Made by a program: the position numbers and the translations under genes
Shown here: piece by piece, positions 25,289 through 55,967 of the stretch
How positions within the stretch are numbered: position 1 is the first letter of the stretch
Layout of the letters: each line of letters begins with the position of its first letter
Source of the DNA: Thermoanaerobaculia bacterium
Lineage (GTDB): Bacteria; Acidobacteriota; Thermoanaerobaculia; UBA5066
NCBI GenBank assembly: GCA_963816185.1
Contig: CAWFJJ010000025.1
Coordinates: 128,001-192,000, forward strand
DNA: 64,000 nucleotides
Direction of reading: 5' to 3'
The notes under the pieces: model-generated
Told to the model about the DNA's origin: nothing
Database searches by the model: none
What the model saw: only the letters and a program-made list of their open reading frames with translations

Positions 25289-25582
25289 CTACGGAGCTCC
25301 TTCCACGATGCGGATCTCGCGCTCGGCGGCGTCCTTCAGCACGGCGACCGCAGCCTGATAGGCCGGGCTCTCGTACGTCGCGATCGCCTGCGCGACGCTG
25401 TCGAACTCGATCACGACCGTCCGTTGATTTGTGCCGCCCTCGTACGTCCGGGCCGCGATTCCCCGTGCGAGGAACCGGCCTCCTCCCGCCTCGATGGCGG
25501 GGAGCCCGAGCTTCGCGTACTGGTCGAGACGGGCGAGATCGGAGACGGAGCGGTACGACGCGATCCAGTATCCCTTCCCCAT
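25289..25582 (-). CDS. DUF1330 family protein
   Basis: GYWI...GGRFLARG...EG...RTVVIEFDS..A...YESPAYQ...R..RIVEG. Confidence 0.88.
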   Translation of the reverse strand: MGKGYWIASYRSVSDLARLDQYAKLGLPAIEAGGGRFLARGIAARTYEGGTNQRTVVIEFDSVAQAIATYESPAYQAAVAVLKDAAEREIRIVEGAP

Positions 25583-25591
25583 CGGAGCCTC

Positions 25592-25653
25592 GGGGAGAGC
25601 GCGCCGACGCGGATTCCATTTCCAGGAGATGGAATAAAGCTGAAGAGTCGCAT
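25592..25653. repeat. Copy 2 of the 62-bp direct repeat (orphan FAH 5' fragment)
   Basis: Encodes the same MRLFSFIPSPGNGIRVGALS peptide on the minus strand, then diverges. Confidence 0.9.
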
Positions 25654-25729
25654 CACGACCTATCATCTCGCAGTTGAAAAGAGAGTTGGCCCCGGTGTGA
25701 GCTCGCGCGCGGGAAGCTCTTGTGGGCTC

Positions 25730-26710
25730 CTACGCGAACATCGCGTCGCCGAGGCGTTTGAGCATCGGGACACCGCGGATCTCCGTCTCGTACAGCGGCA
25801 CGATGGCGCGGACGCTGCCGTCGAACTTCTGCCAGACGGTTTTCATGTGCTCGTCCTGCATGGCGACACGGTTCTTCACAAAGTCGGCCGCTTCGGCGCC
25901 GACGGAGGCCTTGTCGATCAGCATGTTGACGAGGACGCCGCCCACGGGGATGCCGAAATCGTGGAACCACTGGATGAAGCGGGTGATGACGGCGATCGGC
26001 AGCGCCTCGGGCAGCGTCACGAAGAAAAACGAGGTCTTCTGGGGGTCTGTGAGAAGCACGCGGCCGTGCTCCATCCGGTCGCGGAAGGAGAGGAGGTACG
26101 TCATCAGCGGGTCCTCCTCCTTCTTCTTCGTGAAGGAGAGCAGCTCGCGGAGGGTCTTCGCCTCTTCGCGGCTCTTGAGCATCTTGTTGACCCAGAGAGA
26201 GTAGACCTTGGACATACCGAGCAGGCGCCGGGCGTTGGCGGTGGGCGCGGTATCGAAGACGTAGACGTCGTACTCGTCCTTGAACATGAGGTCGATCATG
26301 TTCTCGAACATCGCCGACTCCTCGAAGGCGGGGTTCATGGTCGCCGACTCCACGAAGTCCTCGGCCTTCGTCGAGATGTCGGCGAACTTGAGGAACCATT
26401 TGATCTTCTCGCGGATCTCGACCTTCGAGCGCTCGATCGTCTCCTTCGTCTCGATCTCGTACGCCCACAGGTTCGGAGCGCCGTCGACCGGCGTGTGCTT
26501 TCCGAGCACGTTCTGGCCCAGGAGGCTCGAGAGACTGTGGACGGGGTTCGTCGAGGCCAGCATCGTCCGGCGCCCGAGCTGCGCGTTGTGGAGGGCGGTG
26601 GCGGCCGCGAAGACTGTCTTGCCGACGCCCCCCTTGCCGCCGAAGAAGATGTACTTCAGGCCGGCGTGGTCCTTGATGTAGGCGCTCATGGAGGTCTGGA
26701 TCTCAGGCAT
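25730..26710 (-). CDS. ArsA/Get3(TRC40)-family ATPase, single domain, degenerate switch I (STNP)
   Basis: GGKGGVGKT deviant Walker A, STNPVHSL, DTAPT, VLVN; RBS GGAGAG before ATG 26710. Confidence 0.9.
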   Translation of the reverse strand: MPEIQTSMSAYIKDHAGLKYIFFGGKGGVGKTVFAAATALHNAQLGRRTMLASTNPVHSLSSLLGQNVLGKHTPVDGAPNLWAYEIETKETIERSKVEIREKIKWFLKFADISTKAEDFVESATMNPAFEESAMFENMIDLMFKDEYDVYVFDTAPTANARRLLGMSKVYSLWVNKMLKSREEAKTLRELLSFTKKKEEDPLMTYLLSFRDRMEHGRVLLTDPQKTSFFFVTLPEALPIAVITRFIQWFHDFGIPVGGVLVNMLIDKASVGAEAADFVKNRVAMQDEHMKTVWQKFDGSVRAIVPLYETEIRGVPMLKRLGDAMFA

Positions 26711-26734
26711 GGCGGTTCTCTCCACGTCCCGGCT

Positions 26735-27721
26735 TCAGCCGAGCTTTCCGTTGCCGTACATGATCCCGGCGAGCTTCTCGATCATCCCGAGGCCCGTCAC
26801 GTCGCGCTCGAGCTCCGGGACGTAGGCGAGGACGTCTTTTCCGAACGTCGTCCTGATGTGTCCGAGGTACTTGTCCTGCATCTGGATCCGGTTGCGCAGA
26901 TAGTCGGGGATGTTCTGGTCGATCAGCTCGTGGGGGATGACGCGGTTGACGACGTAGCCGCCGATCGGGACGTCGAACTGGGCGAAGAGCTTCGCGGCTT
27001 TTTCCGTGTCCACGATGATCATGTCCTCCGGCGTCACGACGAAGAAGAACGCCGTCTTGTCCTTGTCCGTGAGGATCTTGGAGGACGCGTTGATCCGCCC
27101 CTTGATGTAGACGAGCTCGTTCAGGATCGCGTCCTGCTCGGTCTCCTTCTCGCGCTTGAGGCGGCTGACCATCTCCTCGTACTCGCGCATGTCCTCGCGC
27201 AGCTTCGTCACCTTGTTGATCCACTCGTCGTAGACCTTCGCCATCGAGAGGTAGTAGAGCGCGTGACCGAGCGGGACGAGATCGTAGATGTAGTAGTCGT
27301 AGTTCTCCTGGACGACGACGTCCACCACGGCGTCGAAGATCGCGCTCTCCTCCATGGCCGGCTCGGCGCTCGCGGCCTGGATGTAGCTTTCGATCTCCTC
27401 GGGCACCTTCTCGAGACCGTACATGTCCCGGATCTTCTTGCGGATCTCCTCCTGGTAGGCCTTGATGTGGCTGTCGGCGTCGATCTCCTGCGCCCACAGG
27501 TTCTCCATGATCTTCACCGGGCCCTTGCCGAAGATATCCCTCTGGAAGATGTCGGTGAGCGAGGCCTGGGGGTCGACGGAGAAGACGAGAACCTTCTTGC
27601 CCTGCTTCGCGAGCCAGTAGGCCGTCGCGGCCGAGAACGTCGTCTTTCCCAGGCCGCCCTTGCCGCCGAACATGATGTACCGGCGGCCCGGGTTCTGCTC
27701 GAACACCTCTTTCATCCCCAT
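26735..27721 (-). CDS. ArsA/Get3(TRC40)-family ATPase, single domain
   Basis: GGKGGLGKT, SVDPQASL, EID, DLVPLGH, VVNRV. Confidence 0.9.
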   Translation of the reverse strand: MGMKEVFEQNPGRRYIMFGGKGGLGKTTFSAATAYWLAKQGKKVLVFSVDPQASLTDIFQRDIFGKGPVKIMENLWAQEIDADSHIKAYQEEIRKKIRDMYGLEKVPEEIESYIQAASAEPAMEESAIFDAVVDVVVQENYDYYIYDLVPLGHALYYLSMAKVYDEWINKVTKLREDMREYEEMVSRLKREKETEQDAILNELVYIKGRINASSKILTDKDKTAFFFVVTPEDMIIVDTEKAAKLFAQFDVPIGGYVVNRVIPHELIDQNIPDYLRNRIQMQDKYLGHIRTTFGKDVLAYVPELERDVTGLGMIEKLAGIMYGNGKLG

Positions 27722-27763
27722 GGTGCGTTCTCCTCTTTCTCGACGATCTTTTTCCCGGAGACC

Positions 27764-28051
27764 TCAGAACATCGCGTCGGAAACGTCCTTCTCCCGAAGC
27801 ATCCGGCGCTTCCACGTCGCGATCTGCGGGACGACGTGCGGAAGGAGTCGGAGGCTGTAGTACGGCGGGAGAATGGGGATCCCGAGCAGGTCTCCCATCG
27901 TGATGAGGATGAACAGGTGCTCCATGGAGGCCCGCGTCCGGAGAGCCGCGCGGCTCATGTCGTGCGCGGACATACCGTAAATGGTTTCCTTGAAACCGTG
28001 CCAGAGTCCCTTGAGGCCTCCCGGCCTGACGTATTTCTTCTTCTCGGACAC
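27764..28051 (-). CDS. Small CstA/ArsA-associated protein (cory-CC-star-like, no CC tail), paralog 1
   Basis: GAGGAGG RBS with GTG start; core MEHLFILITMGDLLGIPILPPYYSLRLLP, shared with 28809..29090. Confidence 0.8.
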   Translation of the reverse strand: MSEKKKYVRPGGLKGLWHGFKETIYGMSAHDMSRAALRTRASMEHLFILITMGDLLGIPILPPYYSLRLLPHVVPQIATWKRRMLREKDVSDAMF

Positions 28052-28124
28052 CGTCTCCTCCTCTCGCCGCCCGGGCGCGATTCCGGGCCCGTTCCAAGGT
28101 TAGAGCCCCCGGCGCTCCGGGACG

Positions 28125-28139
28125 CGATGCAGATGCACT
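28125..28139. promoter_or_regulatory. Putative operator CGATGCAGATGCA upstream of the small-protein/ATPase operon
   Basis: 12/13 match to 34350-34362; about 23 bp upstream of a -10-like TAACCT (minus strand, 28097-28102). Confidence 0.5.
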
Positions 28140-28253
28140 AATGAGATTTCGAGGAGATTCGGCCCGAAAAACGGCGAGCGCGCGCTCGAGGTGCCCGTGG
28201 CCCCCGAAGCGCGCGCTCTGGTTTCAGCTCGACGCGGATTCCAGTGCTTCTCT

Positions 28254-28679
28254 CTACTTCTCCTTCACCTTCACCTTTTCCTTGACGATGACCTTTCTCC
28301 CGTTCTCCAACGTGATCACCTTCTGGGTGGTCCAGTGTCCGGGAACGTACTCGACACCGCGATCGACACGCGTGTACTCGGGCGCGACCCAGCGGACTTC
28401 CGCGGCCGGCGGAGCCGCCCAGCGCCCGGTGACCCAGACCCAGCCGGTGGGTCGATGGTCCCAGTAGCCTGCGATCCAGACGTAGCTCGGCGCGGGACGC
28501 GTGCTCTCGACGACCGCCTCCTCGACGGGCGGCGGCGGCTGCTCCTTGACGACCGTGACGGTCACCTCGTCAGGGATCGGCGGTGGCGGCGGCATCGGAA
28601 TCTGGGCCGTCGCGATTCCGGCGCCCAGCATGAGAGCGACACCCAGAGTCGGACCCAAGATGTTCTTACGACACATCAT
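28254..28679 (-). CDS. Secreted WXXGXW (YXWGXW) repeat protein
   Basis: Signal peptide, Pro-rich linker, YVWIAGYW, WVWVTGRW, YVPGHW repeats. Confidence 0.85.
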   Translation of the reverse strand: MMCRKNILGPTLGVALMLGAGIATAQIPMPPPPPIPDEVTVTVVKEQPPPPVEEAVVESTRPAPSYVWIAGYWDHRPTGWVWVTGRWAAPPAAEVRWVAPEYTRVDRGVEYVPGHWTTQKVITLENGRKVIVKEKVKVKEK

Positions 28680-28808
28680 GCTCTCCTTTCGGGGGTTCCG
28701 GACCCCGCGGAGGAGACCGCAATCACGATGCCAGGTGCCGTTGGCTCTTCTTCAAAAAAGGCCGATTCGCGTAAAGAATGCGCCGACCGACAACCATGAA
28801 CCGTGCCT

Positions 28809-29090
28809 TCAAACCCCGTGCAGATGCTGTTCGTGGCTGTCGCCGAACTGCCGCTCGCGCAGCGTGCGCCTCTTCCAGGTCTGAAGGCTGCCGGTGACGT
28901 ACGGGAGGAGGCGCAGGGCGTAATAGGGCGGCATCACCGGCACGCCGAGCATGTCGCCGAACGTGATGAGCATGAAGAGCGATTCCATCGACGCGCGGAT
29001 CTCGAGCGCCTGCTGCGCGTGCTCGTAGCCGAACATCCCGTAGAGGAATTCCCGGAACGCTTTTCCCCGGCCGCCGCGCGTTTCCACCAC
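28809..29090 (-). CDS. Small CstA/ArsA-associated protein, paralog 2
   Basis: GAGGAG RBS; MESLFMLITFGDMLGVPVMPPYYALRLLP..WKRR..RE, paralogous to 27764..28051. Confidence 0.8.
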   Translation of the reverse strand: MVETRGGRGKAFREFLYGMFGYEHAQQALEIRASMESLFMLITFGDMLGVPVMPPYYALRLLPYVTGSLQTWKRRTLRERQFGDSHEQHLHGV

Positions 29091-29197
29091 GTCTCTCCTC
29101 CGCGCCGAGTGTATACACAGGTCCAGTGAGGCTCCCTCACCTCATCACGGCCGTTAGTTATCGAACTGCAGGACCATTTCAATACAGGATTCTTGCG

Positions 29198-31645
29198 ATG
29201 CGGCTCTTAGGGTCTTCGCGTCGTGCCGGGCTTTCTGCTCTCGTCGCCGCGCTCTGCGCCGCCGCCGCGCCTGCCTTCGCGGGCGTGTGGTTCTGGCCTG
29301 TACCTGCGCCCCCGGACGCACTCGTGATCTCCAGTGCGGCGTTGTCGCTGACATCGAGCGGGCTCAATTTGAACATTCCGTACGGCCTCTTCGCGGTCCC
29401 GGGGCGCGGCATGTTTCACCTGGGATTAAGGCAATACGTGCCTGCGCCATGCGCGGACGCGCAGATAGTCGATATCCTCGACTATCAAACGCTCGCCGCC
29501 TGGACCAGCTGCGGCCTCTTGACCCTGTCTGGGCCAGCCGCCAAACCAGCGGGGCCCGGCCTGCCTGTCGGGGCGCAGGTTACGAGCATGCTGAATGGCC
29601 TCGTCGGGACCTCCAACGCGGGCGTCTACTCCTTTGGGTCGCTCGGAAGCGTTCTCACACCATCGAGCGACGGGCTCCCGGCAAACGCGCCGATCCGAAG
29701 CCTGGGTTTCGCGGCAGGGCGAACGTACGTTTCTCTTTCCGGCGGAGGTCTTTACGACAGAATTTCCGGCGGTCTGTGGAAAGACGCCTCCAACGGACTC
29801 CCGGCCGATGAGACGGTAAACGCCATCGGAGGGGCCCCGAGTACGTTCGCCGCAGTTGACGCGCACGGCATCTGGCGACGGATGGGGTACGGAAACTGGC
29901 AGCCCGATTCCGACGGCGCGAACTCTGCTGTGGTGACCTCTTTCGCAGGCTCATTCGCTGCCGCCCGAACCGCAGGAGTCCTGCGCCACGTGGACGGCGC
30001 GTGGATGCCCGAGACATCGGGACTTCCACCGGGCACGGACGCGCGCGTGATCGCCGCGGGCACAAGCGGCAGCCCGTTCTTTTTTGGCGAGAATTTGTTC
30101 TTCGGCACGGGAGGGCAGGGACTCTTCGAGGCGATCGCAACCCCGATGCAACGCGTCCTGCCCGCTCTCGTGGACACGGTCGGTGCAACCGGACAGCAGT
30201 TCCGAACGGAAATCACGATCGGGAATCTCGGTCCTTACGATTCCGTGGATCTATTGGTTTCTCGTCCCCCCGGCCTCACGACCCTACACATTCCGTTACG
30301 CACGGAGCTGAGGGCGCCCGACGCTGTTTCGTGGCTGCGCTCGACGGGACTGGATATCCCCGCGAGTGCCGCGGTGACCAGCCTGACGATCCCTCTTTTG
30401 GGTGGGTACGGAGATGTTCCATCTGGGAGATACATATTCGCCCGCATCTACACGACCGATGCGTCCGGGGGGACGTACGGCGTGATGCTCGAGGCGCCGA
30501 CGGATATCGATGCGGCGGAAGAGGAGGCGAGCGTCTACGGCCTGAGAAGCGCGGCAGGGGTCGAGCGCTCGAACCTCGCCGTATTTCACGTGTCGACCCT
30601 TCGCGGCTCCGACCCGATCACGCTTTCGGTCCAGGTGTTCGCGGCGGACGGAACCCCCGCACCGAACGTCCTCACCCGAACGCTTGCGCCCGGCGAATTC
30701 TTCCAGTGGAACGACGTGCTTCTCCTCGCGGGTCTGCCGCAGGGGTCGTCGGGCTACGCGCGGATCTCAAGGGTCGCGGGCATCGGCGCGTGGACCGGCT
30801 ACGGCGTCATCAACGACGCCGCGACTTCGGACGGCGCTGTGCTTCCGCTCTACCGGCCGGGAGGCCTCGCCGCGGCGCGGCGCCTGCTCGTGCCGGTCGT
30901 CCTCGACACGTACGGCGCGGCCGGGTCGCATTACACGACCGAGCTGACGCTCGCGAACGATTCGGCGCGGCCGTCGACGGCCTCGCTCCTCTATCACGCC
31001 GCTCCGGGCTACGGCGCTCCGCTCGCCGCGCCTGCCGTGTCGCTTCCCGTCGGCGCCGGGCGACAGGTCACACTCCCGGACGTCGTCGCGTTCCTGCGGG
31101 CGCATGGAGTGGCGATCCCGGATCCGCTGGCGGCGGGCTCTCAGGCCGGGACTCTCGAGATCGTCTTTCAAGGCCTCGACGGCGACGACGCGGCGAGAAC
31201 GGTCGCGCTCGCGCGCACGACGACGCCGAACCCGAATCGTGACACGGGAGGCCGCTTCGGCGTCTCGTATTCCGCGATCGCGTGGGGAGGCGGGGCGCGG
31301 CAGACGGCGCTGGTTCCCGCGCTGTCGCAGGACGCGGCGAGCCGCTCGAACCTCGCCGTCGTCAACGCCGGCGGCGGCTCCGAAGGCCCTATCACGCTCT
31401 CCGTCCAGCTCCGGGATGCGGACTCGGGCAGCGACGTGGGAAGCCCGCTCACCGTTTCCCTGAATCCCGGCGAGTGGTTCCAGTGGGACCGGGTGATCGA
31501 GCGCGCCGGCGCCGCGACCTCGAAGGCGATCGCGACCGTTACGCGCATTGCCGGAGACGACACGTTCTTCGCATACGGCGTCGTGAACGACGCGAAGACG
31601 TCCGACGGCAGCTTCATCCGGATGATCCGGCTCGACCCGGAGTAA
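29198..31645 (+). CDS. Large secreted protein: N-terminal beta-propeller-like repeats + two tandem beta-sandwich-like modules
   Basis: Signal peptide (AAPAFA); repeated S(D/N)GLP units; duplicated module ...RSNLAV...L.PGE.FQW...YGV.NDA.TSDG. Confidence 0.8.
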   Translation: MRLLGSSRRAGLSALVAALCAAAAPAFAGVWFWPVPAPPDALVISSAALSLTSSGLNLNIPYGLFAVPGRGMFHLGLRQYVPAPCADAQIVDILDYQTLAAWTSCGLLTLSGPAAKPAGPGLPVGAQVTSMLNGLVGTSNAGVYSFGSLGSVLTPSSDGLPANAPIRSLGFAAGRTYVSLSGGGLYDRISGGLWKDASNGLPADETVNAIGGAPSTFAAVDAHGIWRRMGYGNWQPDSDGANSAVVTSFAGSFAAARTAGVLRHVDGAWMPETSGLPPGTDARVIAAGTSGSPFFFGENLFFGTGGQGLFEAIATPMQRVLPALVDTVGATGQQFRTEITIGNLGPYDSVDLLVSRPPGLTTLHIPLRTELRAPDAVSWLRSTGLDIPASAAVTSLTIPLLGGYGDVPSGRYIFARIYTTDASGGTYGVMLEAPTDIDAAEEEASVYGLRSAAGVERSNLAVFHVSTLRGSDPITLSVQVFAADGTPAPNVLTRTLAPGEFFQWNDVLLLAGLPQGSSGYARISRVAGIGAWTGYGVINDAATSDGAVLPLYRPGGLAAARRLLVPVVLDTYGAAGSHYTTELTLANDSARPSTASLLYHAAPGYGAPLAAPAVSLPVGAGRQVTLPDVVAFLRAHGVAIPDPLAAGSQAGTLEIVFQGLDGDDAARTVALARTTTPNPNRDTGGRFGVSYSAIAWGGGARQTALVPALSQDAASRSNLAVVNAGGGSEGPITLSVQLRDADSGSDVGSPLTVSLNPGEWFQWDRVIERAGAATSKAIATVTRIAGDDTFFAYGVVNDAKTSDGSFIRMIRLDPE

Positions 31646-31728
31646 GCCGCCGGCACGTTCGAGACGCTCTGCTATCGTCTCCGCCCGGCGAGGCGATCGC
31701 CGGGAGGTCCCACCTGTCCACTCCGCTC

Positions 31729-32352
31729 ATGTTCCTGGTCGCGATCGTCATGGTGTGGTTCGCGGCCGGGAGCATCTGGAACGTGCGGAAGGGGAAGGCC
31801 ACGATCCGCTGGATGCAGGGAGGGCTTCATCTCCTCTGCGAAAGGACGACGGTCCGATGGCTCGGGACGACGGCGGTCGAGCTCGCCCTGGTGAAGCCTA
31901 AAGCCCCGTTCGAGGGGGTAACGCTCGTGATCTTCCTCGAGCCGCGGGACGTCCCGTGGCTCTGGGGGTTCTCGAGGAGCCGGGGGCGCCGCGACGCGCT
32001 CATCGTCCGCGGGAAGCTCCGCCGCGCGCCGCACGGCGATCTGGAGGCGCTCGACCGCTCGAGCTTCGCGGGGCGCGACGCGCTGCGCCACATGGCGAAC
32101 GAGCGCTGGTCGGTCCGCGAGGCCGCGGCCGAAGGCATGCGGCCGGTCTACTACAAGGTGGAAGGCACTCTTCCGCTCGCCGACGATCTCCTCGAGCTGG
32201 CCCGCGCCGGAGGCTTGACGGTCCGGCGCCTCTCCGTACGCCGGGCCGAGCCCCACTTGCAGCTCCACATCGACCTGCCCGCCGAGTCCGCTCCCGCCGC
32301 GGACGTGTTCGCGGCGGTGCGGATGATCGGCGATCGCGCGCTGAGGACCTAG
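31729..32352 (+). CDS. Single-TM membrane-anchored protein of unknown function
   Basis: C-terminal part of ORF 31282..32352; N-terminal TM then WNVRKG...LEPRDVPWLW...GRRDAL; GGGAGG RBS nearby; convergent on cstA. Confidence 0.75.
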   Translation: MFLVAIVMVWFAAGSIWNVRKGKATIRWMQGGLHLLCERTTVRWLGTTAVELALVKPKAPFEGVTLVIFLEPRDVPWLWGFSRSRGRRDALIVRGKLRRAPHGDLEALDRSSFAGRDALRHMANERWSVREAAAEGMRPVYYKVEGTLPLADDLLELARAGGLTVRRLSVRRAEPHLQLHIDLPAESAPAADVFAAVRMIGDRALRT

Positions 32353-34268
32353 ACGATCACGGGGGCCGGCTTCACGGCCGCCGGCGTCGCGCTGTACTTC
32401 CGGTAAGCCTTCAGGCCGTCCCACCCGATGAAGAGCGCCGCGATGATCAGGAGAACTGCGAGGACGATCATCGCCCACGCGCCTGCGACCGGCAGCCCGC
32501 TCATCGCCGGGTTCGCCGCGATCGTCACATAGAGGTTGCGCGCCGTGACGGCCGTGGCGAAGAGCGTCGTGACGTACATGAAGAGCATCGGGTAGAGGGC
32601 GAAGCTCGGGTTCCTCTTCTCCGACTTGAGCCAGACGGTCACGACGAGGAGGCTCAGCGCGGCCATGAGCTGGTTCGACGCGCCGAACATCTGCCACAGG
32701 TAGACCCACGTGCCCGTCATGACGAGCGCGAGCGTCAGCAGCATGGAGATGATGCTCGAGACGTGCATGTTGCGCACGAGCGGAATCGCCTCGCCCGCCC
32801 ACTCGGTGAGCGTGACGCGCATGACGCGGAAGACGAGCTGCGTCACCGTCAGGACGATGACGACGAAGGCGCCGAACCCGAGCGCCGTGCCGAAGACCTC
32901 GGGGATCGCCTTGAACGTGCCGGCGTAAATGAGCTTGCCGACGCCCGCCGCGAACCTTCCGCCGCCGCCCCCGACGCCCGCGATCGAGACGGCCACGAGC
33001 GAGAGGAGGGCGAGCGTGTATTCGCCGAACATCGAGCCGCCGCCGACCGGGAGGCCGTCGGTCTCGTACTCGAGCTGCCGCGCCGTCCCGACCGAGCCGA
33101 CGAGCGCGTGCCAGCCGGAGATCGCGCCGCAGGCGATCGTCACGAAGAGCATCGGCCAGAGCGGCTGCCACGCCGTGAACGGCTTGACCGGGGCCGTGAA
33201 GCCGAGGTCCTTGACCGCCGTCAGCGCGAACGCGCCGATGGCCTTGCCGCCCGCGTCCAGAACGCCCGTCAGAGGCGCGACGAGGGCTCCGATCGCCGAG
33301 AGGACGATCGTGATGAGCATGACCCAGAAGCCGATGTAGTTGACGGGCTGGGCGAACCGCCAGATGGGCATGTTCGCGCCGCAGTAGGAGAAGGCGAAGA
33401 GGAAGACCATCCAGAGGAGGTAGTTCGGAAGCGTCCGGATCTGCTGCGTGGCCGCGTCGTACGCTGGGGTCGTCGGCCTCTTGCCGTCGGGCCCCGGAAC
33501 CGGGATGCGCGGGTCGGCGTTCGTGGGATCCTGGAGGGAGAGGATCGGCTGCTTGGCGTTGAGGTTGTCGATGGCCGCGTTCACCGAGACGACCGCCGCG
33601 CCGACCGGCCCCTGGACGAGAGCTCCCTTCGCGTTCTTCGTCTGGCCCCACGGGCCGAGCGCCATGGCCCCGAGCGTCACGGCCACGACGATCACCGTCA
33701 CGAGGATCAGGTTCATCTTCCAGCGATACATCATCTGGCCCGCCAGAAGACCCATGAGCGCCAGCATGATGATGCCGAACGGCACGTCGGGGCGCGCGGA
33801 GAGGATCGCCGCGAGGATTCCGACGAACGCTCCGGCGAGGAGCATCAGGTAGAAGAAGATGAAGATGAAGAGGATCGTCCGGGTGCGCGGCGCGATGAGC
33901 TTGTGCGAGATCGCGCTCAGGCTGTTCCCGTCGTTCCTCACCGAGACCATGATCGCGGAGTAGTCGCTGACCCATCCGATGAAGCTGACCCCGATGACGA
34001 GCCACAGGAGGGACGGGAACCAGCCCCAGATGTTCGCGGCCGTGATGGGGCCGACGATCGGCCCCGCGGCGGCGATGGACTTGAAGTGGTAGCCGTACAG
34101 GACGTTCTTGCTCGTGGGCATGAAGTCCACGCCGTCCATGTACATCGTGGCCGGCGTCGCTTTCTTCGCGTCGGACCTGATGACGTCCCGGTCGATCCGC
34201 CGCGCGTAGAAGTTGTAGGCCAGGTAGATGACGACCGTCGCGATCACGACGATCCACAACGTGTTCAT
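32349..34268 (-). CDS. cstA: Carbon starvation protein A family transporter (peptide/pyruvate:H+ symporter family)
   Basis: TPA...DGVDF.PT...LYGYHFKSIAAAGPIVGP, LFVTIACGAISGWH, W.MFGASNQL; many TMs; AAGGAG RBS. Confidence 0.92.
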   Translation of the reverse strand: MNTLWIVVIATVVIYLAYNFYARRIDRDVIRSDAKKATPATMYMDGVDFMPTSKNVLYGYHFKSIAAAGPIVGPITAANIWGWFPSLLWLVIGVSFIGWVSDYSAIMVSVRNDGNSLSAISHKLIAPRTRTILFIFIFFYLMLLAGAFVGILAAILSARPDVPFGIIMLALMGLLAGQMMYRWKMNLILVTVIVVAVTLGAMALGPWGQTKNAKGALVQGPVGAAVVSVNAAIDNLNAKQPILSLQDPTNADPRIPVPGPDGKRPTTPAYDAATQQIRTLPNYLLWMVFLFAFSYCGANMPIWRFAQPVNYIGFWVMLITIVLSAIGALVAPLTGVLDAGGKAIGAFALTAVKDLGFTAPVKPFTAWQPLWPMLFVTIACGAISGWHALVGSVGTARQLEYETDGLPVGGGSMFGEYTLALLSLVAVSIAGVGGGGGRFAAGVGKLIYAGTFKAIPEVFGTALGFGAFVVIVLTVTQLVFRVMRVTLTEWAGEAIPLVRNMHVSSIISMLLTLALVMTGTWVYLWQMFGASNQLMAALSLLVVTVWLKSEKRNPSFALYPMLFMYVTTLFATAVTARNLYVTIAANPAMSGLPVAGAWAMIVLAVLLIIAALFIGWDGLKAYRKYSATPAAVKPAPVIV

Positions 34269-34349
34269 CGGTGGGCTCCTTTCACGGGCGTGTCCCGTTG
34301 GCGCGCAGAGGTACCCCTTCAGCATAGGTCGGAGCGCAGCCTTCGCCGT

Positions 34350-34364
34350 CGATGCAAATGCATC
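34350..34364. promoter_or_regulatory. Palindromic putative operator GATGCAAATGCATC upstream of cstA
   Basis: Perfect 6-bp inverted repeat, about 24 bp upstream of a -10-like TATGCT (minus strand, 34321-34326). Confidence 0.55.
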
Positions 34365-34496
34365 ATCGGCCGGGGGCGAGAAGAAATTTCTTAGAAGAGG
34401 TAGGACGAGCTCGGGCGCCGTCGAAGCAACGGCCGGCGGCCCAGCCCTATTACCATTCGCAGAGATTCTTCAGGGCCACCGTCGCGCGCGTGACGC

Positions 34497-36417
<1,921 letters not shown>

Positions 36418-36421
<4 letters not shown>

Positions 36422-37026
36422 CTTGTGCCCTCGCCTCTCATACGCCGAATGCCGGGACGCGGTTCATCGGCACGGGCGCGGCGGTCCGCGGTGGACTCGA
36501 ACGGCGCCTCCCCTTCGGTTCTGACCTGAGCGATGAACGGAAAGTTCCCGCCCTCGCCCATGTATTCCATACCATAGCCCACGAGCACGCCTTCCTCCGC
36601 CGGGAACAGGACGTAATCCGCGCGGAGCGCGCTTTTCCTCTCCTGGGGATGATCCACCACGCAGGCGAAACGGATGGAACGGGGCTTTTCTTCCCGCAGC
36701 TGATTCAGCAGCCACGTCTCGACGACCCCGCTCCGGATCACGTCCTTGAGCACGATGAGGTGGGTGTCCGCAACGTCGAAAGGCGCCAGGAAGTGATAGT
36801 TGACGACCTTCTCGCTGTCGCCGTCGCGGAGCACGTCGATGTACTCGCAGTGGACGGGCCGTGGCACGGCGCGGGCGAGGTCGGCGACGAAGAACCCCGC
36901 GCCCTTCAGGATCGCGATGAGGACGATGTCGCCCTCGGGATAGTCGTGACCGATCCTCCGGCCGACGTCCACGACGCGCCGGGCGATGTCTTGCGGGCCG
37001 TACAGCTCGTCGGTGACAAGTGCCAC
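36418..37026 (-). CDS. hpt: Hypoxanthine phosphoribosyltransferase-like protein (degenerate PRPP loop)
   Basis: [25 protein letters not shown]; tilS-hpt-ftsH synteny; PRPP loop reads [11 protein letters not shown]. Confidence 0.75.
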
Positions 37027-37070
37027 AGACGTGTAAGTCTAGCAGGGGAGGCCGATGCGAAAGGGGAGGC

Positions 37071-38577
37071 TCAGGGCCGGGAGTACTCGTCGATCACGCG
37101 AGAGATCGCCCGCCTGCAGACCGGACAGAAGCCGCCCGGATCGCGCGTGAACATGATGCAGTCGGCCGAGGGCCGGTAGAGGCCTTTCGCCTCGTACGAG
37201 GCGCCCTCGAAGGCTCCGACCTTGCCGGACCACGTCATCGTGGACAGGAGCTTCGAATCCAGGGCCATCTGCCGGCGGAAGAGGTCGTCGAGCGCGGAGG
37301 GCGGAGCGCCGGAAGCGATGAGCTTCTTCCGCTCGGCCTGGAATCCGCGGGTCTGCTTTTCGAAGGCTTCTTTCTCCCACGGGGTCGGCAACGGCGTTCC
37401 CTTCCCGACGAGGTCGGCCCACTTCAGCGCCTTCGGGTCATGCAGGGCGGTCACGTTCGGCTCCCACGGCTCCGGCTTCTCGCCGCCGGTCTCATACGCC
37501 ACGTCCGATCCGTAGTACTCGTCCGCGAGGCCCGCGAAGTGGTGGCCGAACTCGTGCACGAAGACGTACTCGGAGAAGCCCGTGTCCACGGACGCGGTGG
37601 CCTGGAAGTTGTAGATTCCGCCGCCGCCGTAACGTGCGTCGTTCACGAGAATCTCGAGGAAGTCGTACGGCGCGGCCGAGGCGGCCTCGCGAAGCGCGCG
37701 GTCGTCGTACGTGAGCATGTAGCGCTCCGAGCCGAAGATGCCGTATTGAACGGACAGCGGCGTTCTCCGGAAGATCTTCGAGTCGGGTCTCAGGACGCCG
37801 CTCTCGGAATCGGGCAGGTCGAGCGCGCGCACGTTGAAGTCGGCCTTGCGGCTCTTGAACGGCTCGTACGTGAAGAGGATGTCCACGAGGCGCTTCACGT
37901 CGGCGTGGAACTTCGGCAGGTCCTTTTCGGCATAGCCCTCGCCGAGGAGGAGGAGATCCAGCTTCGCGGCGGCCGGCCCGTTCTCGAAGACCGTCCAGAC
38001 CTTTCCCATCGGCGCCCGCGACGCGGGATTCACCTCGGGCCCTGCGGGATCGATCACGGTAGAGAACAGCTCGTGGAAGACGTTCGCCTTGTCGCGGCGC
38101 TGGAGGACGATCCGGACCTTCTCCCTCGGCCATGGAAGCCGCAGCGATTCGGGAAACGTCCGGGCCGCCCTCTTCGCCTCCTCCGTCTGCTCCCACTCGC
38201 TGAACATCGACGAATAGCCGCGCGAGAAGAGGACGCGATTCGTCCGTGCGTCCCGGACCTCGAACAGATTGCTGCCGAGGTTCGTCTCGTCGAGGAGGCG
38301 GGTCCGGCTGCCCGGCCAGGGGCCGTCGTCGACGACGCGATCGAGCGCCACCACCTCGCCCTTCGGGCCGCCCGTGTGGAAGAGATCCACGCGCATCGTG
38401 CGGCCTGTGAAGCGGGCGTCGAAGGCGCTCGGAGAAGAAATTTCTGCTGAAGAGGGGGAAGAGAAGAGCAGAAGAGGAAGAAGAAGAGAGATCTCTTTGA
38501 ATAGGAAGAGGGGGGGAGTGCAGCCGCAGCGAGGATGAGGGGGCGGCGCAGCTTGGTGGGAGCATGCGGAGGTTCAT
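37071..38577 (-). CDS. M64 family (IgA peptidase-like) metallopeptidase; signal-peptide region frameshifted
   Basis: RVDLFHTG, LLGEGY, YGGGG, HEFGHHFAGLADEY, EPNVT, YRPSADCIM, FCPVC; in-frame signal-like stretch upstream of 38396 lacks a start codon. Confidence 0.85.
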
Positions 38578-39578
38578 GATGGCTCGATCGTAGTCCTGAG
38601 TTCGAACTCTCCGCGCGCTGGAACGAACCTAACGGTGCGTGGATCGACCTCGACGCGGCCGCCCGCGAATTCCTCGCCGAAGGTCCTGTCACCTTTCTCG
38701 ATGCGGCTCAGGACCTTCTTCACCTGCGCCTTCCCCGGGACCCGGCCGCTCGCGCCGGCCGCACTTACGAGCAACCGACCGGCCTCTTCGAGCGAGAGCC
38801 GTGCGAAAAAGGATCGGGGCCAAATACCCTTCGACGAGATCTTCTTCTCGGCCAACGCCTCGTCGAGCCGGCGGTCGAGCGCGTCCAGCCTCTCCCCCCA
38901 TTTCGCTCCGGCGCGCGCCAGCCGCGCAGCTCTGCCGGGGTCCTTTCGCTCCATTTCCGGAAGCACCCTGCGGCGGATGCGATTCCGCGCGAAACCCTCG
39001 TTCTCGTTCGTCTCGTCCTCGCGAAAGGGACGCGTCTCTCCGCGAGGAACTCGCGCAGCTCGGCCCGCGAAAAGGGGAGGAGCGGACGGACGATGCCGTC
39101 GGCCCGGTGCGAGCGGATGCCTCCGCGCCCGCGGCCGAGTCTCCGCTCGAGATGGAGCAGGACGGTCTCGGCCTGGTCGTCACGCGTGTGACCGGTCAGG
39201 ACGAGAGCGCCGCCGAGGCTTTTGGAGAATGCGAGGAGCGCCGCGTACCGCAGGCGGCGGGCCGCAGCCTCGAGGCTCTCGCCCTTCCTCGCCCGGACGG
39301 GACGTCCACGGAATGAAGCGTGAAGCGCAGGGAAGCGTCGCGGCGAGGCGTGCGCAGAACCGCGCGTCCTCGTCGCCGGCCGCGCCCCTGAGGCCGTGCG
39401 CGACGTGAGCGGACGTCACGGCGACACCGCGCGGAGACGCCCATGCGACCGCGAGGAGGAGAAGCGCCGTGGAGTCGCTCCCGCCCGAATGCGCCACGAC
39501 GAGCGTGTTGGCGCCTGCGAAAAGGCGCGTTTCCTCGACGTGTCGAAAGAAGCGGTCCGGCAATGAAACAGAGCTCAA
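38574..39578 (-). CDS. tilS: tRNA(Ile)-lysidine synthetase (multiple frameshifts)
   Basis: VAHSGGSDS, HVAHGLRG, EAAARRLRY, GHTRDDQAET, RPLL, EDETN, RNRIR motifs spread over different frames. Confidence 0.85.
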
Positions 39579-52812: not shown

Positions 52813-54564
52813 TCAGGAAGCCGGAAAATACTCGCGCCAGCGCCGGTCGACGAGCGCGGCAGTGCCGGGATCGGCCTCCACGACTTTCGGCATCCAGGGT
52901 TTCGTTCGGGCGTCCAGGACGACCGGCGGCGCGAAGGCGATGTGGTTTCGGATCACCTCGTGCCGGCCGTGGAGGTCCGCGGCGGGCTCGAATCGCGTGA
53001 AGACGTGCCAGAGGAACGAGCGCTCGTCCTTCGCCGCCGCAGCCGCGTCGTCGGCGAGGACGACGAGCGGCCAGCCGGCGACCGCAGGGTCGTGGGCGAG
53101 GAGCTCTGCGAAGGAGCGGTCGGACGCGAAGGACGGCCCGTCCAGGACGAGCGCGCCGGGACAGAAAACGGCGGCCGTGCGCGCGCCCTCGGGAAGCGTG
53201 CCGCGGAACTCGTGCGGGAGGTCCCGGACCGCCTCCCCGAGGCCGAGGAGGACGCCCTTGCTGCCTTCGTTCACCTTCGGGCCCGTGTAGTCGAGCGTGT
53301 CCATCGCGAGGTTCGAGAACACGAAGAGGTCCGTCTCGAACCGGCAGCGCGCGAGGACGTGGCCGAGGAGGCCGCGGAAGTCGCGCAGGTCGCGCCTCGC
53401 GTCGGTGACGAGCAGGAACTTCGTGAGCGCGAGCTGCCCCTCGCCGAGGATGCGGAAGGCCGAGGTCATCGCCTCGCGGCCGTACCGGTCCTTCACGACC
53501 GCCGCCGCGAGCGAGTGGAAGCCCGTGTCGCCGTAGCTCCGGAGGTCGACGACGGACGGCATCACGAGCGGAAAGAGCGGGGACAGGAGATCCTGCAGCA
53601 TGTCGCCGATGTAGAAGTCCTCCTGGCGGGGCATCCCGACGACCGTCGCCGGGAAGATTGCGTTTCGCCGCCGGTAGATCCGCGCGACCTCGAAGACGGG
53701 ATAGTCGTGCGCGAGCGAGTAATAGCCGTAGTGGTCCCCGAACGGGCCCTCCGCCTTCCGGACTTTCGGCGGCACCGAGCCGGTGAGCGCGAACTCCGCG
53801 TCGGCGACGAGGCGGTGCGGGTGAGACGGGACGCTCGTCATCGGGAGCTTCTTCCCGAGAAGGAGAGAGGCGATGAGGAGCTCGGACAGCCCCTCGGGCA
53901 GCGGCGCGACCGCCGCGAGGATGAGGGCGGGAGGACCACCGAGGAAGACCGTGAGGGGCAGCGCGGACCCCCGCGCCTCGGCCTCGTGGTAGTGGAGCCC
54001 GCCGCCCTTCGCGATCTGCCAGTGGACGCCCGCCGTCCTCGGACCGTGGATCTGCATGCGGTAAACGCCGAGATTCGACTCGCGCCGGACGGGATGTTCC
54101 GTGTAGACGAGTGGCAGCGTCAGGAACGGTCCGGCATCCTCGGGCCATTGCGTGAGGGCGGGGAGGCGCGCGAGATCGGGCGCGTCTTCCACGACGTCCA
54201 GCACGGGTGCGACCGAAACGCGCCTGGTCCCGATGCGCAGCGCGGCGCCGAAGAACGACCGGAACGCCCAGAGTTTCTCTCCCGTCGGCGGGAGGAGCTC
54301 GACCGCGGCGCGCGCCGCTGTCTCGACGAACTCCCGCGGCTTCTTCCCGAACGCGAGATCGAGGCGCTTCTCGGTGCCGAAGAGATTCGTCACGACGGGA
54401 AAGTCGGCGCCCCTCGGGCGCTTGAAGAGGAGTGCCGGACCTCCCGCCTCGATCACCCGGCGGTGGATCTCCGGGATCTCGAGTCGCGGGTCGGCCTCGG
54501 CCTCGATCGTCGCGAGCTGATTCTCGCGGCGCAGGACGTCGAGGAAGGCGCGGAGGTCTCTCAG
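52813..54564 (-). CDS. UbiD-family prFMN-dependent decarboxylase (long MqnL-like type)
   Basis: DLRAFL..L, GGPALLF, NLFGT, NLGVYR.Q, EGPFGDHYGYY, GMPRQED, DTLDYTG; frame open to about 54564, exact start unclear. Confidence 0.88.
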   Translation of the reverse strand: MRDLRAFLDVLRRENQLATIEAEADPRLEIPEIHRRVIEAGGPALLFKRPRGADFPVVTNLFGTEKRLDLAFGKKPREFVETAARAAVELLPPTGEKLWAFRSFFGAALRIGTRRVSVAPVLDVVEDAPDLARLPALTQWPEDAGPFLTLPLVYTEHPVRRESNLGVYRMQIHGPRTAGVHWQIAKGGGLHYHEAEARGSALPLTVFLGGPPALILAAVAPLPEGLSELLIASLLLGKKLPMTSVPSHPHRLVADAEFALTGSVPPKVRKAEGPFGDHYGYYSLAHDYPVFEVARIYRRRNAIFPATVVGMPRQEDFYIGDMLQDLLSPLFPLVMPSVVDLRSYGDTGFHSLAAAVVKDRYGREAMTSAFRILGEGQLALTKFLLVTDARRDLRDFRGLLGHVLARCRFETDLFVFSNLAMDTLDYTGPKVNEGSKGVLLGLGEAVRDLPHEFRGTLPEGARTAAVFCPGALVLDGPSFASDRSFAELLAHDPAVAGWPLVVLADDAAAAAKDERSFLWHVFTRFEPAADLHGRHEVIRNHIAFAPPVVLDARTKPWMPKVVEADPGTAALVDRRWREYFPAS

Positions 54565-55526
54565 GCGAACTTGTCCGTCGCGGCGACGAGGGCGCGGGTG
54601 TTCGGCGGCTCCCAGGCGCTGTGACCAGCGTCGGGCGAGATCACGAAGTCAGCCTCGGGCCACGCGCGGTGCAGGGCCCAGGCGCTGAAGATGGGGCAGA
54701 CGACGTCGTAACGCCCCTGGACGATGACGCCCGGGATATGGCGGATCCTTCCGGCGTCGCGCAGCAGCTGGCCATCGACCTCGAAAAAGCCGCGGTTCAC
54801 GAAGTAATGGGCCTCGATCCGCGCGAAGGCGAGCGCGAACTCGTCCTCCTCGTAGTGCCCGGTGAACGAGGCGTCCGGGAGCAGCTTCGACGTCGCGCCC
54901 TCCCAGCCGCTCCAGACCTTCGCGGCCGCGAGCCGGACGGCGGGGTCTTCGCTCGTGAGCCGCTTGTGGTACGCCGCGACGAGGTCGCCGCGCTCGGCCT
55001 CGGGGATGTGGGCGAGGTAGGGCTCCCAGGCGTCGGGGAAGAGGATCGACGCCCCTTCCTGGTAGAACCAGTCGATCTCCTTCTTGCGGAGGAGAAAGAT
55101 CCCGCGCAGGACGAGCTCCGTCACGCGGTCGGGTTGCTTCTCCGCGTAGGCGAGGGCCAGTGTCGAGCCCCATGAGCCGCCGAAAACCTGCCAGCGCGCG
55201 ATCCCGAGGTGCTCACGGAGCTGCTCGATGTCGGCGACGAGGTCCCACGTCGTGTTCGCCTCGAGGCTCGCGTACGGAGTGCTCTTGCCGGAGCCCCGCT
55301 GGTCGAACATCACGACGCGGTACTTCTCGGGATGGAAGAAGCGGCGGACCTTCGGGTCCGATCCGCCGCCCGGGCCGCCATGGAGGAACACAACGGGCTT
55401 CCCGTTTGGGTTGCCGCTCTCCTCGAAGTGGAGCTCGTGGACGTCCGAGACCCGGAGCCGGTCGGTGCGGTACGGCTCGATCGGGGGGTAAAGCCAGGTG
55501 ACGGGGTCCTTGACCGGATGCGGCAT
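54561..55526 (-). CDS. pip: Proline iminopeptidase
   Basis: HGGPGGG, DQRGSG.S, GGSWG, LRGIF, GRYD.VCP, AGHS. Confidence 0.95.
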   Translation of the reverse strand: MPHPVKDPVTWLYPPIEPYRTDRLRVSDVHELHFEESGNPNGKPVVFLHGGPGGGSDPKVRRFFHPEKYRVVMFDQRGSGKSTPYASLEANTTWDLVADIEQLREHLGIARWQVFGGSWGSTLALAYAEKQPDRVTELVLRGIFLLRKKEIDWFYQEGASILFPDAWEPYLAHIPEAERGDLVAAYHKRLTSEDPAVRLAAAKVWSGWEGATSKLLPDASFTGHYEEDEFALAFARIEAHYFVNRGFFEVDGQLLRDAGRIRHIPGVIVQGRYDVVCPIFSAWALHRAWPEADFVISPDAGHSAWEPPNTRALVAATDKFA

Positions 55527-55571
55527 GCGAACCTCCGAATGCATCCTGCCAGAGTCCGGGGGGTCTGCGCG

Positions 55572-55967
55572 TCAGGGGCGGGGCGCCGGCCCCGCGAGAT
55601 CCGAAAGCGCCGTCCGCCGCAAGCGCTCGAGGAAGTCCTTCCGCACGGGCGCGAGAACGGCGCCCACGGGTCCCGCGACCGGCGGAAAGGCGCGCTCGAG
55701 ATCGTCGCGCTTCTCGAGCGCGAGGGCGACGTCGGCGAGCGTGATGTCCGAGGCCGGCCGGCCGAGGACGAACCCGCCGCTTCGCCCTCGCTTGCTCCTC
55801 AGGAGACCGCGGTCTGCGAGGCGCCCGAGCACCTTGGAGAGGAACGGCGCGGGGACGCCGGCGGCCTGCGCGATCGCGACCACGCCGCGCCCTTTACCCT
55901 GCGGCCCGCGTGGGTCGAGGAGCGGCAGCGCGGCGAAGGCGATCTCCTGGGCGCGCGTGAAGAACAC
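55572..55967 (-). CDS. Rrf2 family transcriptional regulator (no Fe-S cysteines)
   Basis: IA...VP.PFLSKVL..L...GLL.S.RG..GGF.L.RP..DITL. Confidence 0.85.
   Translation of the reverse strand: MFFTRAQEIAFAALPLLDPRGPQGKGRGVVAIAQAAGVPAPFLSKVLGRLADRGLLRSKRGRSGGFVLGRPASDITLADVALALEKRDDLERAFPPVAGPVGAVLAPVRKDFLERLRRTALSDLAGPAPRP

Follow-up and report, generated by a model that had tools for sequence, protein, structure and literature searches.

The closest described relatives of the locus analyzed here are gene clusters in which a permease of the CstA family is encoded beside a homolog of the ATPase ArsA. In the parts available to us, Castillo and Saier (2010, Int J Microbiol 2010:187373; PMC2963123) reported 26 such associations, 24 of them with a protein of about 90 amino acids (aa) termed CstX; the ArsA homologs were single-domain proteins of about 330 aa, sometimes present as adjacent pairs (Cluster 15), and five archaea carried CstY, a protein of about 210 aa with a single transmembrane segment. 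Those parts of the paper find every cluster free of ars genes, document that CstA, CstX, and the ArsA homologs cluster together and have parallel trees, and propose that the ArsA homolog energizes CstA with CstX as the linker. Among the matches listed, our literature searches found no experimental follow-up of the cassette, and "CstX" in this sense appeared only in PMC2963123; the literature on CstA together with ArsA-type ATPases yielded, beside it, only an unrelated soil metaproteome preprint. We examined positions 25730-34364 of a 64,000-nucleotide stretch of a Thermoanaerobaculia bacterium genome (contig CAWFJJ010000025.1, positions 128,001 to 192,000; hereafter the window), which a first-pass annotation had put forward as an undescribed system. 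Because the 2010 paper, as far as its available parts go, reports CstA–CstX–(CstY)–ArsA-homolog clusters, that description no longer applies: the span is very probably one copy of a conserved cassette of the Castillo and Saier cluster type, cstA/cstY-like/cstX-b/cstX-a/ATPase2/ATPase1, split by two recent insertions. The conserved cassette has thus already been described by comparative genomics, and this window is a disrupted variant of it.

The window shares with the 2010 clusters a CstA permease, CstX proteins of about 90 aa, single-domain ArsA homologs of about 330 aa, and the lack of ars genes; its two X proteins were equated with CstX by size and context, not by sequence comparison. CstY was archaeal only in the available parts of that account, whereas here a CstY-like gene, likened to it by size and topology, occurs in bacteria from no fewer than five phyla, always on the opposite strand. 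Two distinct X paralogs, complementary ATPase motifs, and a fold resembling CCDC47 are features of the present cassette that those parts do not contain.

The span holds eight genes according to the open reading frame (ORF) list and family scans, six of which are cassette members. On the minus strand are ATPase1 (25730-26725, 331 aa) and ATPase2 (26735-27721, 328 aa), single-domain ATPases of the Get3/ArsA family and of Get3 type, respectively; two CstX-type small proteins, Xa (27764-28051, 95 aa) and Xb (28809-29090, 93 aa); and a CstA-family permease (32349-34325, 658 aa). The CstY-like protein, Y207 (31729-32352, 207 aa), is encoded on the plus strand, opposite to the other cassette genes; within the listed ORF 31282-32352 it starts at a Met at 31729, and its last 4 bases are shared with the end of cstA. 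All six had been placed correctly by the first-pass annotation, which missed the opposite strand of the 207-aa gene as well as two further genes, of 141 and 839 aa.

The proposal that the six genes form a unit was borne out by a gene-neighborhood survey. One genome per species was searched with an alignment of Xb relatives, and 586 loci were confirmed among at least 600 pattern matches. The best 80 of the 586 confirmed loci were kept (59%–96% identity to Xb) and represent the closest subfamily only; the eight window proteins were placed on them by tblastn, and counts refer to loci with enough room for each gene. Order and strands were fixed as cstA (+), Y207 (-), Xb (+), Xa (+), ATPase2 (+), and ATPase1 (+). 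CstA was present in 63 of 66 loci, Y207 on the opposite strand in 76 of 78, and Xa (77/77), ATPase2 (74/74), and ATPase1 (66/66) in every locus with room, ruling out a chance juxtaposition of six genes. The 80 loci span Acidobacteriota, Chloroflexota, Alpha-, Beta-, and Gammaproteobacteria, Anaeromyxobacteraceae, and one member of the Actinomycetota, with median identities to the window of 76% for CstA, 46% for Y207, 66% for Xb, 80% for Xa, 80% for ATPase2, and 78% for ATPase1. Clustering of the flanking ORFs in these loci revealed no further universal member. In 24 of the 80 loci, cstA is directly preceded on its own strand by an ORF without a Pfam family (median 135 aa), for example, at L037:2319-2804 (+), where it encodes 161 aa; it is absent from the window and may be a further lineage-specific cassette member.

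We turn to the ATPase pair. Each protein has one PF02374 domain (216 bits for ATPase1, 250 bits for ATPase2) and passes the GET3_arsA_TRC40 subfamily model TIGR00345 (206 and 235.4 bits; cut-off 135), and the two are 34% identical to each other. Their switch motifs are invariant and complementary. ATPase1 has the switch I sequence S-T-N-P-V-H-S-L, with Asn60, and the switch II sequence D-T-A-P-T-A-N-A, identical in 68 of 68 true orthologs (a count that omits four ATPase2 genes mis-assigned in loci without ATPase1). In ATPase2, switch I reads S-V-D-P-Q-A-S-L, with Asp50, and switch II is altered to D-L-V-P-L-G-H-A; both motifs are shared by 73 of 73 sequences. The position of the catalytic switch I Asp is therefore always Asn in ATPase1 orthologs and remains Asp in ATPase2. 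In Get3 the hydrolytic water is activated by this Asp, and a mutant with Asn in its place binds ATP without hydrolyzing it. Because Asn replaces the catalytic Asp, ATPase1 is predicted from its motif to be a natural nonhydrolyzing partner, and the complementary, invariant motifs point to an obligate ATPase1/ATPase2 heterodimer, in keeping with the heterodimeric ATPase first suggested for the locus. A complex prediction for ATPase1, ATPase2, and two ATP with Xa, run without controls, scored 0.20 and 0.28 against a mark of 0.32, a result that weighs neither for nor against the complex.

The best solved relatives of ATPase2 are archaeal Get3 chains (3ug6, E 2e-62; 3zq6, E 2e-60; also 3ug7), with which it aligns over its full length, including the P-loop, the switch regions, and the helical subdomain; ArsA chains match only its N-terminal ∼160 residues (E ∼1e-30). 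Unlike archaeal Get3, the cassette ATPases lack the CXXC motif (the C-D-F-C of 3ug6 faces I-P-D-Y-L in ATPase2), comprise two diverged paralogs instead of a homodimer, have a lid that appears charged, and have no known tail-anchored client. Neither contains a single Cys, as the first-pass annotation had stated; Cys is likewise absent from 53 of the 72 sequences in the ATPase1 set (including the four mis-assigned ATPase2 genes) and from 65 of the 73 in the ATPase2 set. Met is above average in both (5.1% in ATPase1, 4.0% in ATPase2). The further suggestion of a Get3-like client groove holds in part: the helical region aligns with archaeal Get3 throughout, but the lid is four residues shorter than that of 3ug6 and, as read from that alignment, charged and not rich in Met. 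A 2019 survey of Get3-like proteins (PMC6593721), in the parts available, leaves bacterial homologs of Get3 that have the TRC40 insert and no CXXC as uncharacterized and notes that some functional Get3 homologs also lack CXXC.

With ArsA–ArsB, the model case of a carrier energized by an ATPase, the cassette shares a Get3/ArsA-fold ATPase, two nonequivalent halves, and a genetic tie to a secondary-type permease; it differs in having two separate genes instead of one fused gene, no metalloid-binding Cys, and CstA instead of ArsB as partner. Each ATPase covers one half of the ArsA model (two fused domains, ∼580 aa), and the ArsA equivalog models score far below their cut-offs (TIGR04291/NF041417; 103.1 and 106.8 bits versus 650, and 134.5 and 133.5 versus 800). 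Another pair of adjacent, diverged Get3/ArsA-fold ATPases, presumably a heterodimer, is BagA/BagB of Mycobacterium tuberculosis. The gene context of that pair is different, the window ATPases score 37.6–55.7 bits against the BagA/BagB equivalogs (NF053622, NF053621; cut-offs 400 and 521), and our literature search returned no paper on the mechanism of BagAB (Rv3679/Rv3680). Family scans also gave weak matches of the ATPases to MinD/ParA-type switch families.

Three side observations concern other members of the ATPase family. The ATPase2 ortholog of a Casimicrobiaceae locus (L025:10572-11609) has an in-frame stop, which could be a sequencing error or mark a decaying copy. Elsewhere in the window's own genome are a third single-domain Get3/ArsA-family gene (C29:144096-145016, +; 298 bits, in an open frame of 430 aa) and a weakly matching two-domain gene (C28:201821-203317, -; open frame 696 aa), neither of which lies near a gene for CstA or an X protein.

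The small proteins Xa and Xb are paralogs with 49% identity by alignment and 53%–55% by tblastn. Their C-terminal tails are conserved yet distinct, ending in ...D-A-M-F in Xa and ...H-x-H-L-H-G-V/L in Xb, and 48 columns are invariant across 46 Xa orthologs. The first-pass annotation had named the cory-CC-star family in this context, a link that stands at the level of the superfamily only: the family model NF041419 covers about 57–70 of its 80 positions in Xa and Xb, but at 34.6 and 39.3 bits, below the cut-off of 80. The C-terminal Cys-Cys implied by the family name is missing from tails ending in ...DAMF and ...HLHGV, and neither protein has any Cys, as is the rule (0 Cys in 75 of 79 sequences for Xa and in 78 of 81 for Xb). 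No paper on cory-CC-star was found in the literature. A search for relatives of Xb returned 1262 proteins at E ≤ 1e-3, and the precomputed annotation PF25952 was present on 120 of 120 among the matches listed; our own Pfam library scan, with a set that does not contain PF25952, assigned no family to Xa or Xb.

Structure prediction folds Xb, with moderate confidence (predicted local distance difference test [pLDDT] 70.8), into a hairpin of two helices (7-47 and 55-83) that has an invariant G-D...P-P-Y-Y at its tip. The hydropathy peak of the CstX proteins, 1.4–1.6 (19-residue window), is marginal for a membrane helix and lies some 27 residues before the C terminus, and the hydrophobic stretch contains the invariant Gly-Asp and Pro-Pro. 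Foldseek compared the Xb model with the PDB and returned a single match, at E 9.6; a likeness of the hairpin to the Get1 coiled coil, which we had considered, gained no support from it. A third, more diverged X copy, 54%–68% identical to Xa, follows ATPase1 in 14 of the 62 loci with room. The loci concerned are mostly from Chloroflexota (e.g., L024:4311-4532 and L030:12737-12970).

Y207 has one N-terminal hydrophobic helix, and its size and topology are those of CstY (∼210 aa, single transmembrane segment). The Pfam scan assigned no family to it. A model built with 38 relatives (pLDDT 95.8) has an alpha/beta domain behind a long N-terminal helix, and its Foldseek matches in the PDB at E ≤ 1e-3 were 7tm3_4 (E 4e-7, query TM-score [TMq] 0.72), 9i78_4 (2e-6, 0.71), and 6w6l_7 (3e-4, 0.55), with TtfA (6t84) fourth at E 4e-3; identity in these alignments was 9%–13%. 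TtfA is a membrane-anchored partner of the MmpL3 transporter. The first three matches are multipass-translocon entries. According to the available parts of the papers, 6W6L (PMC7505659) and 9I78 (PMC12572126) contain CCDC47, which has a single transmembrane domain plus a cytosolic one, and we infer from the content of the entries that the matched chains are CCDC47. An Atlas features search pointed the same way (CCDC47 cluster at 0.80), as a lead only. Y207 and CCDC47/TtfA have in common one membrane helix followed by a cytoplasmic alpha/beta domain in the model; Y207 differs from CCDC47 in having no lumenal domain, no long C-terminal coiled coil, and no sequence-level match. Because none of the 38 family members matches the CCDC47 Pfam model PF07946 even at E ≤ 10, the likeness in the model appears to be one of fold only.

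The Y207 profile, run against 1.84 billion representatives, matched 551 proteins at E ≤ 1e-3; the best 150 of the 551 were mostly of about 200–250 aa, alongside fragments and a small number of longer proteins. Cluster look-up of ten distant relatives named one as Anaerolineaceae and none as archaeal. In the available parts of PMC7505659 and PMC12572126, "archaea" refers to Oxa1-type insertases, not to CCDC47, and no literature joining any two of CCDC47, TtfA, DUF1682, and DUF7990 was found. A candidate relation to TolQ (E 7e-4, 22.8 bits, profile positions 90-183 versus TolQ 34-129) had no echo in the fold search and is probably spurious.

The permease itself matches PF02554 at 341.5 bits, in three stretches, and its true start is likely Met20, at ∼34268. 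It shares 34% and 28% identity, over two aligned stretches, with a canonical CstA encoded on another contig of the genome (C21). A search of the genome for a partner of the YbdD/YjiX type (PF04328) found none.

Two lineage-specific genes, both outside the conserved cassette, interrupt it in this copy. A gene for a 141-aa WXXGXW protein (28254-28679, -) lies between Xb and Xa, and a gene for an 839-aa protein (29126-31645, +) occupies the old divergent intergenic region of Y207 and Xb, which in the 80 loci is short (median 108 bp). tblastn detected no relative of either gene in any of the 80 loci. In the relatives L003-L005 (89%–96% identity), the Y207-Xb and Xb-Xa gaps are about 90–130 bp; one genome of the same genus lacks both insertions and has an Xb-Xa gap of 130 bp (G154), and another lacks the 839-aa gene, with a Y207-Xb gap of ∼100 bp and Xa on another contig (G095). 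Contigs assembled from metatranscriptomic libraries of two soil studies cover the cassette genes of close relatives at 90%–99% likeness; they attest presence in the libraries, with transcription not proven, and uncovered parts of the span are no sign of silence. These contigs jump both insertions exactly (28148->28808, and 29088->31653 with 2564 bases skipped), and a soil DNA run carries the WXXGXW-bearing form at ∼96%. The two insertions are very probably recent. Of the ancestral divergent region, 76 bases remain upstream of Y207 (31653-31728), each of which can be aligned with L003-L005 as far as the break at 31653. Judging from the alignment, the 839-aa gene was inserted in the divergent promoter region, from which it now cuts off Xb. 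Tolerance of the cassette for two inserted genes, one at the promoter region and one between the X genes, is the only point new in this window.

The inserted genes belong to families that recur in the genome. The WXXGXW protein has a signal-peptide-like start, a Pro-rich stretch, and the WXXGXW repeat (PF12779, 26.9 bits). The 839-aa protein, whose likely start at 29198 coincides with a signal-peptide-like segment, has an internal repeat in its C-terminal half; the Pfam scan gave it no family, and an Atlas features search pointed, as a lead only, to beta-propeller clusters (Vgb lyase/lactonase-like) at 0.89. Its paralogs were found by tblastn on 11 contigs (C1, C2, C5, C8, C16, C18, C21, C24, C25, C27, and C28). 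On C5, a paralog (53699-55918) lies ∼1.2 kb from a WXXGXW paralog (57090-57380), divergent as in the window, suggesting that the two inserted genes may travel together. Contig C27 (1-18662) carries the locus as a strain variant and matches window positions 29084-39558 at 96.4% identity over 8 kb; it begins at the 5′ end of Xb, and its CstA and Y207 are 99% and 98% identical to those of the window. At the same place it carries a different allele of the 839-aa family, with 51% protein identity, and the gene appears to be hypervariable or exchangeable.

The ancestral promoter region holds a candidate regulatory site. An inverted repeat, TAGCA-N10-14-TGCTA, occurs in eight of the 80 loci (L003, L004, L005, L014, L028, L034, L042, and L052), all from close Acidobacteriota relatives and always 33–57 nt upstream of Xb, and was not found elsewhere in the 1.2 Mb of loci. 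We consider it a candidate operator of the divergent Y207/Xb promoter. The window keeps one half-site (31670-31674), the second having been removed by the insertion. A promoter and terminator scan of 25500-34600 gave no promoter-like and five terminator-like sites, no more than in shuffled sequence.

Beyond the cassette, the genes look like ordinary housekeeping functions: ftsH, a phosphoribosyltransferase, and an M64 peptidase on one flank, and DUF1330, an FAA hydrolase, panE, and folP on the other. The ftsH gene (34391-36421, -) looks frameshifted near 34750. Its 676-aa ORF ends with ∼115 low-complexity Arg/Ser/Pro residues, typical FtsH C-terminal sequence resumes in the frame of ORF 34497-36089, and Pfam M41 matches only positions 1-157 of 191; the frameshift is probably an assembly or sequencing error.

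How the cassette might work is less certain than what it is; energizing or regulating CstA and chaperoning hydrophobic helices into the membrane had both been put forward in the first-pass annotation, and either may hold. We tentatively favor, as plausible though far from assured, an ATP-coupled accessory machine on CstA, in which the heterodimer, docked via the X hairpins on CstA and Y207, makes transport ATP-dependent. ATPase2 and ATPase1 would form an asymmetric Get3-type heterodimer with a single hydrolytic site, ATPase2 hydrolyzing ATP with its retained switch I Asp and ATPase1, with Asn, binding ATP without hydrolysis. The heterodimer would dock at the cytoplasmic face of a membrane complex of CstA and the CstY-like protein, with the two helical-hairpin CstX proteins serving as adaptors, each with its own conserved C-terminal tail. 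ATP binding and hydrolysis would then drive the permease as ArsA drives ArsB, and in nutrient-poor soil this might let cells take up scarce substrates, peptide- or pyruvate-like, against a steeper gradient. Each protein contact, the substrate, and the direction of coupling are offered as suggestions, built around the gene content, order, conservation, motifs, and folds observed above. Favoring this reading are the fixed architecture of the 80 loci, the median identities of 76%–80% for CstA, Xa, ATPase2, and ATPase1, the invariant, complementary switch motifs of the two ATPases, their placement within the Get3/ArsA subfamily model but below the ArsA equivalogs, the precedent of a transporter partner in TtfA as fourth fold match of Y207, and the presence of close relatives' cassette genes in metatranscriptomic libraries from two studies. 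The same coupling was already proposed in 2010, in the available parts of PMC2963123.

Several observations weigh against such coupling. The identities of the components co-vary across loci (Spearman 0.26–0.93), a signal confounded by shared descent, which alone could produce it. Occurrence is uneven in a phylum sample of 201 genomes, with X in 10, Y207 in eight, and both in five; one family in this sample (f27) has two X genes without a Y207 match, and three genomes have a distant Y207-like gene without X. Because of this distribution, the cassette looks patchy and Y207 not strictly obligatory, as far as gene presence can tell. Nor can cstA and the X-ATPase genes form one transcript, because Y207 lies between them on the opposite strand in every locus. 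No tool that we used indicated binding between cassette proteins. Finally, the ATPases are nearer to archaeal Get3 (E 2e-62) than to ArsA (E ∼1e-30, N-terminal part only), which, together with the CCDC47-like fold of Y207, points to the handling of membrane proteins rather than to pumping.

That last point leads to the main rival, a dedicated machine for membrane-protein biogenesis or assembly, which we regard as unlikely but deserving serious attention. The Get3-like pair would hold hydrophobic helices in its groove, perhaps the marginally hydrophobic CstX hairpins or CstA segments, and deliver them to the membrane, and Y207, with its CCDC47 fold, would act as an assembly chaperone for the many-helix CstA. 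The full-length relation of the ATPases to archaeal Get3 chains, helical subdomain included, and their above-average Met fit this, but the lid segment, as read from the alignment, is charged and not Met-rich. The hydrophobic peak of CstX, borderline at 1.4–1.6 and ∼27 residues from the C terminus, resembles a tail anchor, yet the invariant Gly-Asp and Pro-Pro within it are unlike a plain transmembrane helix. Likewise, the confident Y207 model matches three translocon entries containing CCDC47 (PMC7505659 and PMC12572126, in their available parts), but with 0 of 38 members matching the CCDC47 Pfam model the likeness is confined to the fold. TtfA, of related fold, works with a transporter and not in insertion, and five dedicated factors for one permease would be unusual.

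Still less probable, in our judgment, is a nucleotide-state switch without energy coupling, in which the ATPase pair would sense ATP/ADP and open or close CstA via CstX, regulating a proton-driven permease during starvation. The invariable Asn60 of ATPase1 (68/68), which by motif impairs hydrolysis as in slow switch ATPases, agrees with such a role, as do the MinD/ParA-type switches in the ATPase superfamily, with their weak family matches here, and the transcription of cstA apart from the ATPase genes. Against that, sequence does not separate a switch from energization, and the conservation of the ATPases (medians 78%–80%) fits either. Eukaryotes use a Get3-type ATPase and CCDC47 separately at the endoplasmic reticulum (ER), and a bolder version of the biogenesis idea combines the two: the cassette as a self-contained prokaryotic machine for post-translational membrane-protein handling, with a Get3-type ATPase, a CCDC47-fold protein, and the CstA-like protein as client or even membrane conduit instead of a simple nutrient carrier, which could represent the ancestral module for part of the eukaryotic multipass machinery. 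We see this as a long shot.

An ArsA-type arsenite or antimonite resistance pump, to which only the family name of PF02374 ("anion-transporting ATPase") lends credit, is excluded for practical purposes, as the first-pass annotation had foreseen: the single-domain ATPases score only 103–135 bits against ArsA cut-offs of 650 (103 and 107 bits) and 800, a metalloid site is impossible because both have 0 Cys, no ars family other than ArsA/Get3 (and so, as also anticipated, no arsB, arsC, arsD, or arsR) was found by Pfam and NCBIfam scans among the eight span proteins or in the examined flanks, no ArsB was found in the whole assembly (94.9% complete), whose single ACR3 is on another contig (C5), and Castillo and Saier, in the available parts of PMC2963123, found all clusters of this kind free of ars genes.

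Permeases of the CstA family are common, and little about them is understood. The cassette occurs widely among uncultured soil phyla, shows very strong conservation, and turns up in metatranscriptome libraries from soil. Should the ATPase pair drive CstA, it would join ArsAB as the second case in which an ATPase of the Get3/ArsA fold makes a pump of a carrier. Should the pair handle membrane helices instead, the cassette would constitute a bacterial Get3-plus-CCDC47-like system, with a bearing on the origin of ER biogenesis factors.

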